DNA from: a virus
Taxonomy: Duplodnaviria > Heunggongvirae > Uroviricota > Caudoviricetes
Strand: one strand, 5' to 3'
Virus record (IMG/VR): IMGVR_UViG_2706794673_000010
DNA: 4,507 nucleotides
Part shown: piece after piece, positions 1,337 to 4,507 of the stretch
Layout: each line of letters starts with the position of its first letter
Position numbering within the stretch: position 1 is the first letter of the stretch
Program-made: the position numbers and the translations under genes
The notes under the pieces: generated by a model
Seen by the model: the letters and a program-made list of their open reading frames with translations, nothing else
Databases searched by the model: none
Told to the model about the DNA's origin: nothing

Positions 1337-2023
1337 TCACTCCTTCTCTTCTTTACCGTAGTGGAGTTGACCAATTTTGATAAGAGGGCGTCCCTGAGAT
1401 TTGCGGTGTAGATTGGTATCGCGCAGAGAATACACACAGCCACAATATTCCTGCTGATAGAATTTTTCGCGCTTGCTGATTTCAATCATACGGGACGAGC
1501 CGCCCTGCTTGCGCCAGTTATAATCCCAGTACACCATGCCCGGATAATGCGCGACGGCTCGCCGCCCACAGTCGTTAACCTGCTGCATATTTTTCCAGCG
1601 TGAAATGCCCAGTGAACTGCTGATCACACTGAAACCATTTTCAGCGGCGTACAGCGCTGTCCGCTCAAAACGCATGTCAAAACACATGGTGCAACGGATC
1701 CCTCGTTCGGGCTCCCATTCCATTCCTTTGGCTCGTTCAAACCAGTTGTCTGTGTCGTAATCAGCATCAATAAACGGCACGCCGTGTTGTTCAGCAAAGC
1801 GAATATTCTCATCCTTACGAATTAAATACTCTTTCTGAGGATGAATGTTCGGGTTGTAGAAAAAGATGGTGTAGTCGATTCCCGAGGCCTGAAGCGCCTC
1901 CATCACCTCACCGGAACATGGAGCACAGCAAGAGTGCAGTAGTAGTTTGTTTGCCCCGTTTGGGAGCTCCAATTTGGGCCGTTTGAAATCAGCAACTGTC
2001 ATAAATATGTTTATTGGGGTCAT
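1337..2023 (-). CDS. queH: DUF208 / QueH-like protein (epoxyqueuosine reductase family, Fe-S), 228 aa
   Basis: Uninterrupted 228-codon frame with TGA at 1339..1337. N-terminal [14 protein letters not shown] matches the cysteine motif I recall for DUF208/QueH, with further Cys at RCTMCF and YCGCVY. No clear Shine-Dalgarno before the ATG at 2023 or the alternative ATG at 2002 (MTVADF). Confidence 0.75.
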
Positions 2024-2170: not shown

Positions 2171-2584
2171 TTATTCAGTTCTGGATTTTGTCGCCCTGCG
2201 TATCCGCGCTTTCGCGTTACGCTCAATCTGTATCAGCTTTTCTATATTTCTCCGCCTTTCCTGTTCCTCCTGGCGCAATAGCCTTACATCATCTGCCAGT
2301 CTGGTTTCTCTTTTTGCCACAGAGAGCATCCAGTCAAACGGCTCCACAACCGCACCGCAGATTTTACAGCGGACCTGACGCTCTTTTTCGTCAACCCGTA
2401 CAGAGGCGTGATGGCAATATGGTCTTTCCGATGGCTCATAAAGAAAATTAACCTGATTACGAGGGTCATCCTCTTTTACCGGAAATAAAACGATATTGCT
2501 TAACTCATCTTCTGGTTTTATTTCCATGCTCCTCTCCTTTGATGCGAATGCCAGCGGTAATTGAAGCCTGATAGCTAATTTCAT
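2171..2584 (-). CDS. hypothetical zinc-ribbon-like protein with basic coiled-coil C-terminus, 137 aa (or 118 aa from ATG at 2527)
   Basis: The ATG at 2584..2582 directly abuts the upstream stop (TGAATG), with AGGAGG 11 nt upstream; an internal ATG at 2527 has GGAGAGGAG nearby. Contains C-H-H...C-x2-C (YCHHASVRVDEKERQVRCKICG) and a charged heptad-like C-terminus. Stop TAA at 2173..2171. Confidence 0.6.
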   Translation of the reverse strand: MKLAIRLQLPLAFASKERSMEIKPEDELSNIVLFPVKEDDPRNQVNFLYEPSERPYCHHASVRVDEKERQVRCKICGAVVEPFDWMLSVAKRETRLADDVRLLRQEEQERRRNIEKLIQIERNAKARIRRATKSRTE

Positions 2585-3007
2585 TCACAGTATCGCCTCC
2601 TGAAAATTACCCTGATAGAAAGCCAGTACACGCTGCATAGCTTCGCTCTTCCGGCACTCGCGACAGATTATATTCAGGCGCCTGTCGTAGCGGCGTATTT
2701 CTCCGTCAGGTAATGACCAGATAAGGTCCGGATCAACAACAACCGGTTTCCTCACCTTTACTCTCGAGAGTTTTTTGCGGGCGCTTTGCCAGTCCTTGCG
2801 AGCCTGTTCAGACGGGAATAAGCCGTAGCCAGAATTATATACATCACCACTTGCGACCAGTTCTATGCATAAGCGACCGACAGACGCACGACTGATACCT
2901 GTTTCATCTGACAACTGCCGAATCGTGACCCGACCGTCCTGATGCACGAGTTCCACAATTCGCGTCTTCAGTTCTTCCCGCTGTTCGGGAGTAAAAGGTT
3001 TCGCCAT
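2585..3007 (-). CDS. hypothetical helix-turn-helix protein, 140 aa
   Basis: ATG at 3007..3005 with AGGAGG 4 nt upstream, 14 nt after the DnaC-like stop. N-terminal segment TIRQLSDETGISRASVGRLCIELV looks like a winged-HTH DNA-binding helix pair; C-terminal CRECRKS. Stop TGA at 2587..2585. Confidence 0.65.
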   Translation of the reverse strand: MAKPFTPEQREELKTRIVELVHQDGRVTIRQLSDETGISRASVGRLCIELVASGDVYNSGYGLFPSEQARKDWQSARKKLSRVKVRKPVVVDPDLIWSLPDGEIRRYDRRLNIICRECRKSEAMQRVLAFYQGNFQEAIL

Positions 3008-3021
3008 AAATCCTCCTGAAA

Positions 3022-3699
3022 CTACTTAACAACCCTCGAATGGCTAACATTCGGACGCCAGCTCTCCCAGTTAAAATTCACCCAGCGNNNNNNNNNNNNN
3101 NNNNNNNNNNNNNNNNNNNNNNNNNNNNNNNNNNNNNNNNNNNNNNNNNNNNNNNNNNNNNNNNNNNNNNNNNNNNNNNNNNNNNNNNNNNNNNNNNNNN
3201 NNNNNNNNNNNNNNNNNNNNNNNNNNNNNNNNNNNNNNNNNNNNNNNNNNNNNNNNNNNNNNNNNNNNNNNNNNNNNNNNNNNNNNNNNNNNNNNNNNNN
3301 NNNNNNNNNNNNNNNNNNNNNNNNNNNNNNNNNNNNGATAGCTGCCGCTAAGTGATTCTTCCCGGTACCAGGTTTTCCGCTGAACGCAAAATTTGTACAC
3401 CCGGTCATCAGTTCATCGGCGATGGATTTCGCCTGGCTTAACGCGTATCGCTGGCCGTCGTTCTGCACCTGGTAATTCGCAAACGAGCATTTACGGTGCA
3501 ACGGCTGGATGCCTGAGCGATTCAGAATTTTTTCCACCCGCAACTGGCGATTCAGGCGGTTGATCTCCTCGCTACGTTTCTGGCCTTCAGCAAGTTGCCA
3601 CTCGCGCCACTCCGCTACCGTTCTGAATGGGGCGGTTACATGTGGCGGGGTCAGTCGGCGGATGCGTTCCAGAACGCCGCCTGTCGCAATATTTTTCAT
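3022..3699 (-). CDS. DnaC-like replicative helicase loader (phage P/DnaC family AAA+ ATPase); central part masked
   Basis: N-terminus MKNIATGGV...RSGIQPLHRKCSFANYQV and Walker A FSGKPGTGKNHLAAAI resemble E. coli DnaC as I recall it; C-terminus RWVNFNWESWR resembles the DnaC tail. The 249-nt N-run is a multiple of 3, so the frame is maintained. ATG at 3699, 6 nt after the upstream stop, preceded by AGGGGG. Confidence 0.85.
   Translation of the reverse strand: MKNIATGGVLERIRRLTPPHVTAPFRTVAEWREWQLAEGQKRSEEINRLNRQLRVEKILNRSGIQPLHRKCSFANYQVQNDGQRYALSQAKSIADELMTGCTNFAFSGKPGTGKNHLAAAIXXXXXXXXXXXXXXXXXXXXXXXXXXXXXXXXXXXXXXXXXXXXXXXXXXXXXXXXXXXXXXXXXXXXXXXXXXXXXXXXXXXRWVNFNWESWRPNVSHSRVVK
3088..3336. 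other. run of N (249 nt): masked sequence or assembly gap inside the DnaC-like gene
   Basis: Contiguous n characters. Confidence 1.
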
Positions 3700-4053
3700 G
3701 GTCCGTTACCCCCTGAAGCCTGGCGGGATCGCACTGTCCGGCAACGAGACGGTGTTAACCTGTCGGAGCAACGTCTCAGGCCGAACACCTTTCGGCGCGA
3801 ACAGGCCCTGGTATTCATTGGCGATGCTGTGTCGAATCACCTGCTCAGGTGTAAAACCCTGCTGACGGAATTTTTCCAGTTCCCGTATCGCCCCGTTAGC
3901 GCCCTGCTCCGTTCGAATCGGTTTTCGCAATGCCTGTCTGAACCGGACCCACTCATGCCAGAGTGTTTCCGGCAACCAATCGGGCAGCTCAATAGCCTCC
4001 GGCTCGAATTTTTTAGACGCTCGTTTTTGGCGAGGGGGAGATCAGTATTTAGA

Positions 4054-4074
4054 TCTTCCTCTTCCTCTTCCTCT
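4054..4074. repeat. hexanucleotide tandem repeat (TCTTCC)3 plus TCT, encoding a poly-Glu tract on the minus strand
   Basis: Plus strand tcttcctcttcctcttcctct; minus-strand codons GAG GAA x3 give EEEEEE in the initiator linker. Confidence 0.9.
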
Positions 4075-4180
4075 GGTAACGCTTTTTGATCCGTTTGTGT
4101 AACGCTGGCAGCGTTACCTTTTCGTTTCAGTTCGCGTATTTTTGTTACTCGCTCGTTTGTAACCGCCCGTTTTTTTTAGA
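4075..4180. other. candidate phage replication origin inside the initiator gene (palindrome, iteron-like repeats, T-rich tract)
   Basis: 19-bp perfect palindrome GTAACGCTG-G-CAGCGTTAC at 4099..4117, with a further GGTAACGC at 4075..4082. CGTTT-containing motifs start at 4092, 4123 and 4154 (31-bp spacing). T-rich stretch 4120..4190 includes T8. Lambdoid origins are known to lie within the initiator gene. Confidence 0.3.
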
Positions 4181-4382
4181 GCTTTTTCCGTTATGACGTT
4201 CAAAGTTAGGTAGAGAAAGCCCTCCGTCATTTTCGACCAGCCATCCAACCTGAATTAACGCATCAGCAAAACCAGACATAAAAGTGATGCGATCTATTGC
4301 ACTTTTTGTAACGCCGCGAGCGTTACAATCTGCATTACCGTCTATCATTTGTTGATCCGCCCATGCCCAGAAGCGAATAACC

Positions 4383-4507
4383 TGAGGTAGCCTGAGTTTA
4401 ACGGACACTCCTTCCTGAAATAGAATGGCATCAGAAGGAGCTAATAATGAGCAGAAAAACCCAACGTTACTCTAAAGAGTTCAAAGCCGAAGCTGTCAGA
4501 ACGGTTC
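4383..4507 (+). mobile_element. left end of an IS3-family insertion sequence (IS600-like), running off the window
   Basis: Begins TGAGGTAGCCTGAGTTTAACGGACACTCC, as expected for an IS3-family inverted repeat (TG...); the orfA start lies 64 nt inside. The boundary is estimated to within a few bp. Confidence 0.7.
4447..4507 (+). CDS. IS3-family transposase OrfA, N-terminal 20 codons (partial)
   Basis: AAGGAG 7 nt upstream of the ATG; translation MSRKTQRYSKEFKAEAVRTV matches my recollection of the IS600 OrfA N-terminus. Confidence 0.7.
   Translation, partial: MSRKTQRYSKEFKAEAVRTV

Follow-up and report, generated by a model that had tools for sequence, protein, structure and literature searches.

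Closeness of a Ren-like DUF977 gene and a zinc-ribbon gene in a Rac-like lambdoid prophage as the probable leftover of a deleted Ea22-like gene

Small proteins of the exo-xis and nin regions modulate early development. In Stx phages, as in other lambdoid phages, the accessory genes of these two regions are poorly understood. Lambda Ea8.5 is a zinc-binding protein, encoded after ea22. The Rex-escape phenotype of lambda Ren, which Toothman and Herskowitz are said to have described in 1980, is known from genetics only. Phage operons are also known for stop-start coupling, in which an ATGA or GTGA joins the end of one gene to the start of the next. Finally, lambda Ea22 (Pfam Ead_Ea22, PF13935) is a pro-lysogenic exo-xis protein (PMC7093339, PMC10834534).

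We compared these systems with a locus in a stretch of 4,507 nucleotides (hereafter the window; IMG/VR record IMGVR_UViG_2706794673_000010). All features considered here are on the minus strand, with a first gene at 3007-2585 (gene 1, or the DUF977 gene) and a second at 2527-2171 (gene 2). The gene order, running from the replication genes (ydaU-like, then ydaV/DnaC-like) through DUF977, an Ea22 relic and gene 2 to QueH, is best explained as the early rightward operon stretch of a defective Rac-like lambdoid prophage. An earlier note, made from the letters of the window, had proposed that the two genes form a regulator-plus-partner pair, translationally coupled through a TGAATG. The geometry behind this proposal is correct: open reading frames (ORFs) 3007..2585 (140 aa) and 2584..2171 (137 aa) adjoin each other without a gap and share a frame, the TGA at 2587-2585 abutting the ATG at 2584-2582. 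The pair itself was not supported by comparison. The closeness of DUF977 and gene 2 is very probably a leftover of the near-total loss of an intervening Ea22-like gene, and not the mark of a working pair. Both are ordinary accessory genes in a prophage that is an ordinary mosaic. The result is mainly cautionary and of use to annotation; it leaves current understanding unchallenged.

Gene 1 (2585..3007, 140 aa plus its TGA stop) is recognized by sequence comparison as a long homologue of lambda Ren, combining a winged-helix domain with the Ren C-terminal motif. Residues 1-136 align with positions 1-134 of the 134 in the Pfam profile DUF977 (PF06163) at 116.5 bits, for a cut-off of 22.1; the protein matches phrog_142, ‘Ren-like exclusion protein’, with E=2.7e-44, and its RefSeq counterpart is WP_001118169.1, a ‘DUF977 family protein’. 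Profile comparison by hhalign with lambda Ren gave a probability of 95% (E=3.6e-8, 88 columns), while BLASTP aligned the C-terminal 20 aa only (E=3e-7). The helix-turn-helix (HTH) protein of the earlier note thus stands as such: residues 7-64 (2816..2989) exceed the Pfam cut-offs for HTH_24 (26.0 bits against 21.9) and HTH_IclR (23.1 against 22), the AlphaFold2 model has a winged HTH with pLDDT above 90 for residues 10-75, and Foldseek matches this model to GntR, MarR and IclR winged-HTH domains. Gene 1 is accordingly modelled as a winged-helix HTH protein and is a putative DNA-binding one. Only weak matches of the winged-HTH type were returned by the anti-phage defence HMMs of PADLOC, and the literature yielded nothing relevant on DUF977 or on the accession numbers. 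Translation would start from ATG 3007, which AGGAGG (3017-3012) precedes by 4 nt within the Shine-Dalgarno context TTCAGGAGG (3012..3020).

The likeness to lambda Ren extends to position, as gene 1 directly follows a ydaV-like gene for an ATP-binding replication loader, just as lambda ren lies right after P in the pR operon. The two proteins share the same PHROG, and their 88-column homology spans both the winged HTH and the C-terminal ECRxSxAMxRVLAxY motif; in gene 1 the invariant form, common to the lambda Ren C-terminus, reads LPDGEIRRY...NIICRECRxSExMQRVLAFYQ (2612..2713). They differ in length (140 aa against 96 aa in lambda Ren), in an extra basic insert of approximately 30 residues (70-95) in gene 1, and in an invariant CxxC (C115, C118) where lambda Ren has one Cys. 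On this homology, gene 1 may act as Ren does, shielding lytic growth from Rex-type exclusion, a reading to which we attach moderate to low confidence.

The junction at the DUF977 stop holds a second copy of TTCAGGAGG (2596..2604), which encodes F-Q-E near the DUF977 C-terminus. Two copies, at 3020-3012 and 2604-2596, are more than the 0.07 expected, and none of 200 shuffled sequences held two or more. The shared AGGAGG context described in the earlier note is therefore present, but not with the role given to it, since the second copy serves a GTG at 2588 and gene 2 uses another site. Indeed, GTG 2588, in another frame, follows the AGGAGG at 2601-2596 after 7 nt, and ATG 2584 after 11 nt. This arrangement is general in the family: a start codon overlaps the stop at -1 ([G/A]TGA) in all 79 DUF977 genes examined, with the next ORF in the -1 frame, and most of these genes present AGGAGG or a one-base variant, then 7 nt, then GTGA or ATGA. 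The genes that follow the 79 stops are diverse (the relic, DUF4406, a methyltransferase and others). From these comparisons, the best explanation is that the AGGAGG-7nt-GTGA end of DUF977 would couple translation to whichever gene comes next; the end of the DUF977/Ren-like gene is a module junction, beyond which lambdoid phages are seen to carry differing genes. The AGGAGG-7nt-[G/A]TGA end, universal in DUF977, and its -1 frame ORF are what this junction has in common with the stop-start coupling of phage operons; the difference is that the coupled ORF in the window is a relic of 27 codons, not gene 2. The conserved signal at the DUF977 stop thereby leads away from the frame in which the TGAATG coupling had been placed.

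The relic ORF (VNEISYQASITAGIRIKGEEHGNKTRR, then a stop; 2505..2588) begins with a GTG that overlaps the DUF977 stop as GTGA, and ends 21 nt inside gene 2. Its termini match those of lambda Ea22, which starts VSEINSQAL and ends DAGIRIKGE before the stop: the start V-S/N-E-I-x-x-Q-A and the tail AGIRIKGE are both kept. At the DNA level too, its ends match those of full-length Ead_Ea22 genes, and Pfam Ead_Ea22 ORFs of full length that share its 3' end stand before gene 2 in other loci. Full-length family members precede gene 2 in further prophages of E. coli, as well as in Stx phage ArgO145 and Enterobacter phage Tyrion. The adjacency of Ea22 and gene 2 is thus found in two diverged lineages, ArgO145 and Tyrion (33% identity; P22-like). 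The Ead_Ea22 domain (PF13935) is absent from ORF 2588-2505, of which 27 codons are left; since only these remain and their ends match Ea22, sequence comparison establishes the ORF as a relic of an ead/Ea22-like gene and not as a member of the PF13935 family. Compared with lambda Ea22, the whole coiled coil and C-terminal domain are deleted in the window, leaving a scar and not a functional Ea22.

The start of gene 2 was judged by the same kind of comparison. The homologues place it at the internal ATG 2527, giving a protein of 118 aa (2171..2527, TAA stop included), and not at the ATG of the TGAATG (2582..2584), which the earlier note had taken as the start. Of 53 loci with the relic junction, 21 have ATG at position 2584, 27 have GTG and five have GTA, a non-start codon; ATG 2527 is kept in all 53. 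Most alleles read GTGAGTGAA (MSE...) at the junction, where a G-to-A change creates ATG 2584, so that this codon is allele-specific and not a conserved start. The match to the phrog_1621 profile sets in only at residue 20 of the 137-aa ORF, RefSeq/PGAP gives a 118-aa protein (WP_001343130.1), and 22 homologues, with identity down to 46%, all start at the position of 2527. Homology of the gene 2 cassette begins approximately 29 nt upstream of this ATG, in at least eight unrelated contexts, with the Shine-Dalgarno kept; this site, AAGGAGAGGAG (2529..2539), lies 6 nt before ATG 2527 and doubles as the codons for ...IKGEE in the tail of Ea22. Stop codons were found one to four codons upstream of the gene 2 start in four loci from distant genera. 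Within gene 2, diversity is 0.074 at third codon positions and approximately 0.01 at first and second ones; the 57 nt between the genes do not have the third-position excess in the gene 2 frame that gene 2 itself has. A diversity figure for the 3' part of DUF977 was set aside, as fixed offsets mislead where alleles differ by indels. No RNA structure occluding the gene 2 start was found, the local RNA being unstructured (z=0.42). Nor did the coding strand, inside the two genes or in the gap separating them, yield any promoter-like or terminator-like site, in keeping with their co-transcription, and no Rfam family was found at the junction. The earlier note had named an internal start at 2527 together with a separate promoter as what would speak against its pair: the start is indeed there, and the promoter is neither needed nor seen.

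A functional regulator-partner pair, with a 137-aa gene 2 translated from ATG 2584 and TGAATG-coupled to the HTH gene, can point to the TGAATG itself, to an ORF open from 2584, to the 137-aa form annotated in phage submissions (e.g. ON470612) and to a direct junction in 975 E. coli genomes. However, the 19-codon extension is missing from all diverged homologues and has no coding-type substitution pattern, a start at 2584 is denied by GTA in 5/53 loci and given as GTG in 27/53, and the Shine-Dalgarno spacing of 11 nt to ATG 2584 compares with 7 nt to GTG 2588. This model is thus largely refuted, and we regard it as very improbable. For annotation, the comparative evidence favours the 118-aa form of RefSeq over the 137-aa form; more generally, a stop set against an ATG, with AGGAGG nearby, can be what remains of a deleted gene and not a coupling device.

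Conservation of the adjacency argues in the same direction. Among E. coli genomes, the direct junction occurs in 975 of the 1,679 that carry gene 2 (approx. 58%) and in 975 of at least 3,617 that carry DUF977 (approx. 27%), while no DUF977 was found near gene 2 in the homologue loci sampled from Klebsiella, Serratia, Erwinia, Pantoea, Photorhabdus, Phytobacter and Kluyvera. The adjacency on which the pair had been founded is therefore real in E. coli but facultative and, among the loci examined, confined to Escherichia/Shigella; with co-conservation only partial and the start misplaced, a dedicated regulator-plus-partner pair is not supported. Overall, the DUF977-relic-gene 2 arrangement was present in 975 of 5,426 genomes, and so common an arrangement could owe its frequency to selection and not to hitch-hiking. 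The two proteins also share no homology: a domain apparently common to them, seen as a MAFFT overlay of their C-terminal halves, was rejected as an alignment artefact (hhalign probability 1%). Three candidate Rosetta-stone fusions (P0041, P0043 and P0063) were likewise set aside. Each joins an N-terminal part of gene 2 to a C-terminal part of DUF977, so that the order is reversed, and at 90% identity each forms a cluster of one sequence, for which reasons they look like rearrangement debris.

Our preferred reading, the loss of an intervening gene, can be put as a sequence of events. The ancestral order would have been DUF977, an ead/Ea22-like gene and gene 2, the last codons of the Ea22-like gene (...AGIRIKGE) carrying the gene 2 Shine-Dalgarno and overlapping the gene 2 start. 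One internal deletion would have taken nearly all of the Ea22-like gene, leaving the 27-codon ORF (2588-2505) and bringing DUF977 to only 57 nt from gene 2. A later G-to-A change in the allele of the window would then have produced the in-frame ATG at 2584, gene 2 presumably being translated from ATG 2527 via its own Shine-Dalgarno site.

The relic could also have been kept for a task of its own, namely to pass ribosomes from the DUF977 stop, by reinitiation at GTGA, to the gene 2 start region; the output of gene 2 would then be tied to DUF977 translation although the two ORFs are not adjacent. Such a role would account for the GTG at -1 in 53/53 loci, in most alleles preceded at 7 nt by AGGAGG (a minority carry weaker forms of this site), and for an ORF that is 27 codons long and unbroken in 49/49 relic junctions despite a variable peptide. 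Adhin and van Duin are said to have found in 1990 that bacterial ribosomes can reinitiate backwards, and the relic stop, 21 nt downstream of ATG 2527, is within such a range. Yet the ORF is only 81 nt, 29 of which are already constrained by the Shine-Dalgarno and start of gene 2, so that its intactness is weak evidence, and all copies of the relic probably derive from one deletion event. Moreover, gene 2 has a strong, unstructured Shine-Dalgarno of its own and is found behind many other genes, and roughly one in three positions of the relic peptide is variable. We consider this role unlikely. UGA read-through of the TGA at 2587-2585, giving a 278-aa DUF977-linker-gene 2 fusion, would make use of the common frame of the two ORFs and the lack of any further stop between them. 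That frame relation, however, follows from a single deletion event; no signal for read-through was identified, no natural fusion in the DUF977-gene 2 order occurs among the homologues, and the linker shows no coding constraint. A fusion of this kind is, in our judgement, scarcely credible.

With the deletion as the preferred origin of the junction, gene 2 is best explained as a self-contained mobile accessory cassette, whose protein comprises a disordered N-terminus, a zinc ribbon of the CxH...CxxC pattern and a basic helix. It matches phrog_1621 over residues 1-117 with E=3e-56; 68/68 diverse relatives match this profile too. A conserved short motif, E-x-E-L-S-N-V-V-x-F-P (residues 6-16, 2480..2512), lies in the segment modelled as disordered. 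The Cys/His cluster noticed earlier holds up as the zinc-ribbon module (residues 36-62, 2342..2422), with the ligand codons C38 at 2416-2414, H40 at 2410-2408, C54 at 2368-2366 and C57 at 2359-2357; the pattern is C-x-H-x13-C-x2-C (C57, H59, C73 and C76 in 137-aa numbering). In 68 diverse homologues, C38, C54 and C57 are invariant and H40 is at least 90% conserved. AlphaFold2 places strands at 43-46 and 51-54 and beta-hairpins in the ribbon. From four Cys/His ligands on two modelled beta-hairpin knuckles, gene 2 has a generic zinc ribbon that is predicted to bind metal. The charged, heptad-like tail was also borne out. Residues 63-117 (2177..2341), with the near-invariant core NIEKLIQIERNAKARIRR, form one long basic helix in the AlphaFold2 model, the C-terminal half of which has pLDDT above 90; 45% of the 55 residues are charged (16 K/R and 9 D/E), and in the best heptad register 62% of the a/d residues are hydrophobic, compared with 35% overall, a value reached in 214 of 5000 shuffles (p approx. 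0.04). This helix probably forms a coiled coil.

The remote homology and structure searches suggested for both proteins thus led from gene 1 to Ren and the winged HTH, and from gene 2 to a zinc ribbon and a helix. The best Pfam and Foldseek match of gene 2 is the TFIIB zinc ribbon (PF08271), which shares the four-ligand beta-hairpin module; the Pfam score of 21.5 bits is below the cut-off of 29, 10/68 family members match weakly, and the Foldseek hit to 1pft is not significant (E=0.19, probability 0.84). The first knuckle of gene 2 is CxH, not CxxC, and is followed by a 55-residue helix, not by cyclin folds. The comparison concerns the fold module alone, and RNA polymerase binding forms no part of it. 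Fold searches in PDB and BFVD gave no significant match, and a PDB sequence search, NCBIfam and PADLOC gave none. Lambda Ea8.5 resembles gene 2 by its position after an Ea22 gene, by a local CxHHxxVxVDE similarity and by the C-x-H...C-x2-C ligand pattern, but the ligand spacing is very different, and homology was not supported (hhalign probability 2.7%). The label ‘LygF’ comes from the Salmonella Enteritidis Sdf-I region and is a name only, which says nothing about function.

From its architecture alone, one may tentatively suppose that the helix lets the gene 2 protein oligomerize and that this protein modulates early development by binding some macromolecule of the host or the phage, which we think rather doubtful. 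The start of gene 2 lies inside the Ea22 tail in lineages as distant as Stx phages and Tyrion, and its real partner might instead be the pro-lysogenic Ead/Ea22 protein, the two acting jointly on the choice between lysis and lysogeny or on host takeover. To this we assign a low probability; were it true, the cassette in the window would be one whose partner is gone. In any case, a family that recurs beside Ea22-like genes is a candidate for studies of exo-xis/nin accessory genes in Stx and other lambdoid phages. The gene 2 family is a widespread, unnamed and uncharacterized phage family, which comprises 1,473 clusters at 50% identity and is found in approximately 31% of complete E. coli genomes.

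The sequence facts on which the earlier note was built stand, and the error lay in the genes to which they were assigned. Every feature is on the minus strand of the window. The TGA stop of a 140-aa ORF (3007-2585, gene 1) immediately precedes an ATG at 2584, which opens a 137-aa ORF ending at 2171, in frame with ORF 3007-2585. The paired AGGAGG context is present as two copies of TTCAGGAGG (3020-3012 and 2604-2596, minus strand; expected 0.07, two or more copies in 0 of 200 shuffles), and the second protein (gene 2) does carry the Cys/His cluster and charged tail described. The two are real accessory genes, independent of each other, in a defective lambdoid prophage of mosaic structure, and public databases already carry annotations for both families. 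The stop-start coupling proposed between them is an artefact, resulting from the deletion of an intervening gene and an allele-specific point change.

The second AGGAGG lies at the optimal 7 nt from a GTG in the third frame (2588), versus 11 nt from ATG 2584, and this GTG overlaps the stop of gene 1, a DUF977 gene (cTGTGA). It opens a 27-codon ORF (VNEISYQASITAGIRIKGEEHGNKTRR*) that runs on the minus strand to a stop (2507-2505) lying 21 nt within gene 2. ORFs of 153-239 aa at other loci share the ending ...AGI[R/H]IKGEEHGNKTR[R/G]* and the same overlap with gene 2; many begin with MSEI[N/D]YQALRE..., and of the eight that were tested, five match Pfam Ead_Ea22 (E between 6e-12 and 2e-39). Lambda Ea22 itself starts at a GTG (VSEINSQAL) and terminates in DAGIRIKGE*, and in its DNA the window retains the first ~22 nt and last ~52 nt of a full-length Ea22-like gene. 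Because the ends of the short ORF match both full-length Ead_Ea22 genes and the lambda Ea22 termini, the 57-nt spacer is the scar of an ead/Ea22-like gene after internal deletion. The majority of alleles read GTGAGTGAA (MSE...) at the codon 2584 junction, and a G-to-A change in the allele group of the window, giving GTGAATG, creates the in-frame ATG that the earlier note picked up. In two database homologues, P0007 (202 aa, Escherichia marmotae) and P0042, the N-terminal coiled coil of an Ead/Ea22 protein is naturally fused in frame to gene 2 from its residue 3; PGAP labels both ‘ead/Ea22-like family protein’.

Five concordant lines of evidence place the start of gene 2 at ATG 2527, for a predicted product of 118 aa, rather than at ATG 2584. 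The PHROG 1621 profile match starts at residue 20 of the 137-aa ORF, and PGAP calls the gene at 118 aa (WP_001343130.1), 57 nt after DUF977. Every homologue down to 46% identity, whether of Klebsiella, Kluyvera, Serratia, Erwinia, Salmonella or Yokenella, begins at the position of ATG 2527 (MxxETExELSNVVxFP). Among 95 related loci, similarity of the gene 2 cassette begins ~29 nt 5' of this ATG regardless of the upstream sequence, of which at least eight unrelated contexts exist, and stops lie 1-4 codons 5' of the start in four loci from distant genera (L008, L010, L012 and L014). Finally, in the 53 loci with the same junction, ATG 2527 is always kept, codon 2584 being GTG in 27, ATG in 21 and GTA, not a start codon, in five; gene 2 displays coding-type substitution there (diversity of 0.074 at third positions versus ~0.01 at first and second), a pattern not found in the 57 nt read in its frame. 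Of the case that the earlier note named as refuting it, an internal start with its own promoter, the start thus holds; a search of the coding strand revealed no sigma-70-like promoter or terminator. Since gene 2 also possesses its own Shine-Dalgarno sequence (AAGGAG, 6 nt 5' of ATG 2527) in locally unstructured RNA (z=0.42), the two genes are probably co-transcribed and separately initiated. In three loci (L037, L083 and L007), the usual start junction (...AAAGGAGAGGAGcATG) is replaced by ...AAAGGAGAGTGAcGTG, where an Ea22-like gene ends in IKGE* and a gene 2 GTG follows one nt later, a tight stop-start.

The coupling architecture at the end of gene 1 is nevertheless genuine, because each of the 79 DUF977 genes from loci L001-L110 has a start codon overlapping its stop at -1 (GTG in 76, ATG in 3). 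In most of them AGGAGG, or a variant differing by one base, stands 7 nt 5' of this overlapping start, a minority having weaker sites. The next ORF in the -1 frame is the 27-codon relic in 49 loci, a DUF4406 gene in 21, a methyltransferase in two and others in seven, suggesting a generic, conserved junction for module exchange and coupling, irrespective of the downstream gene. In the window it leads into the relic and not into gene 2. The relic could still relay ribosomes from DUF977 to gene 2, as its ORF is unbroken in 49 of 49 cases; it is, however, short and partly constrained by the region where gene 2 starts, and its peptide sequence varies, which makes such a relay unlikely.

Linkage of the two genes is also facultative only, which speaks against their acting as a pair. 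Among 5,426 complete E. coli genomes, the gene 2 cassette occurs in 1,679 (2,138 copies, of which almost all are 95-99% identical) and the DUF977 3' half in at least 3,617, with the direct junction in 975, i.e. ~58% of gene 2 carriers and ~27% of DUF977 carriers. In viral contigs, the relic and gene 2 block follows DUF977 alleles of 55-100% identity, and elsewhere DUF4406 and full-length Ea22-like genes stand between the two. The adjacency, conserved to this extent in E. coli, was not seen in any other genus examined: no DUF977 lies within 4 kb of gene 2 in Klebsiella (YbcO, gene 2, YlcG, Q-type antiterminator), Serratia (RusA or NinG, gene 2, small ORF, Q) or the similar contexts of Erwinia, Pantoea, Photorhabdus, Phytobacter and Kluyvera. 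In Salmonella it lies 2.2 kb 5' of gene 2. Stx phage ArgO145 and P22-like Enterobacter phage Tyrion, whose gene 2 homologue is just 33% identical, share the order PAPS reductase, Ead/Ea22-like, gene 2, in which the ends overlap. An Ea22-like gene is thus an older and more widely seen neighbour than DUF977, yet not a universal one. Several prophages carry gene 2 twice, as near-identical copies (L034, L045 and L079) or with a highly divergent paralogue of 25-29% identity 1-3 kb 3' of the first copy (L056 4976-5302, L057 6793-7125 and L078 5059-5304).

The AlphaFold2 model of gene 2 (mean pLDDT 74, disordered N-terminus) displays two short beta-hairpins bearing C38/H40 and C54/C57, then a single helix (63-117) whose C-terminal half exceeds pLDDT 90; fold searches returned no significant match. 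An exhaustive profile search retrieved 1,473 representatives at 50% identity, 217 with E<=1e-10. When 68 of the best-scoring representatives are aligned, they keep an N-terminal NV[V/I]xFP, the ligand pattern C-x-H...C-x2-C, DPFD where the helix begins and a basic segment E[R/K]NxKAR[I/L][R/K]. No Pfam family scored above threshold (weak TFIIB zinc ribbon matches only), NCBIfam, PADLOC and PDB sequence searches gave no match, and the corresponding PHROGs (1621, 4865 and 8538) bear no functional annotation. Architecture and neighbourhood tentatively suggest a zinc-stabilised adaptor that would oligomerise via its helix and, early in development, bind a macromolecule of host or phage. Lambda Ea8.5 (locus L118, 575-856), whose SPCRHHEGVYVDEG is similar to PYCHHASVRVDEK of gene 2 (2393-2422, minus strand), shares with gene 2 the position after an Ea22 gene and the C-x-H...C-x2-C pattern; homology is not supported, the resemblance not being significant (hhalign probability just 2.7%). 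Only modest leads emerge, namely the repeated pairing of Ea22 with gene 2 and how large this uncharacterised family is.

Gene 1 (3007-2585, minus strand) encodes a full-length Pfam DUF977 protein (116.5 bits) matching phrog_142, ‘Ren-like exclusion protein’ (E=2.7e-44). Lambda Ren aligns with 88 columns of the profile of DUF977 alleles (hhalign probability 95%, E=3.6e-8), spanning the winged helix and a C-terminal ECRxSxAMxRVLAxY motif, DUF977 having an additional basic insert of ~30 residues. The helix-turn-helix noted earlier is borne out as a confidently modelled AlphaFold2 winged helix (7-64) followed by a helix (67-84), with a low-confidence C-terminal third; Foldseek matches are generic winged helices of GntR, MarR and IclR. 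The near-identical annotated locus of E. coli FDAARGOS_943, a Rac-like lambdoid prophage, reads YdaS/YdaT-type regulators, replication protein, ydaV (DnaC-like), DUF977, hypothetical protein, QueH, hokD, DUF1367. By this order, DUF977 occupies a place equivalent to that of lambda ren, directly after P and transcribed from pR within cro-cII-O-P-ren (PMC3640518). Within the Ren-like motif, C115 and C118 (2653-2664, minus strand) form an invariant CxxC (ICRECR), of which lambda Ren (FKECR) has the second Cys alone; a metal or redox site is possible.

Directly 3' of gene 2 lies QueH epoxyqueuosine reductase (1337-2023, minus strand; PF02677, E=2e-65), a tRNA-modification gene that the prophage carries as cargo. 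In an alignment to L001, the masked N runs correspond to the hokD/sok toxin-antitoxin region (991-1255) and the inside of ydaV (3088-3336). The replication-initiation (ydaU/O-like) gene (3706-4408, minus strand) gives a gapped alignment with the intact L001 copy and is split into two ORFs or more (4408-4145 and 3975-3706), and the prophage is therefore replication-defective. Both window ends match IS600 (IS3 family) at 100% identity in the same orientation, namely its 3' end at 1-97 and its 5' end, including the start of orfA (MSRKTQRYSKEFKAEAVRTV, from 4447), at 4383-4507, so that the 4.3-kb prophage fragment lies between two direct copies of IS600 that truncate the DUF1367 (NinB-like) and ydaU-like replication genes.
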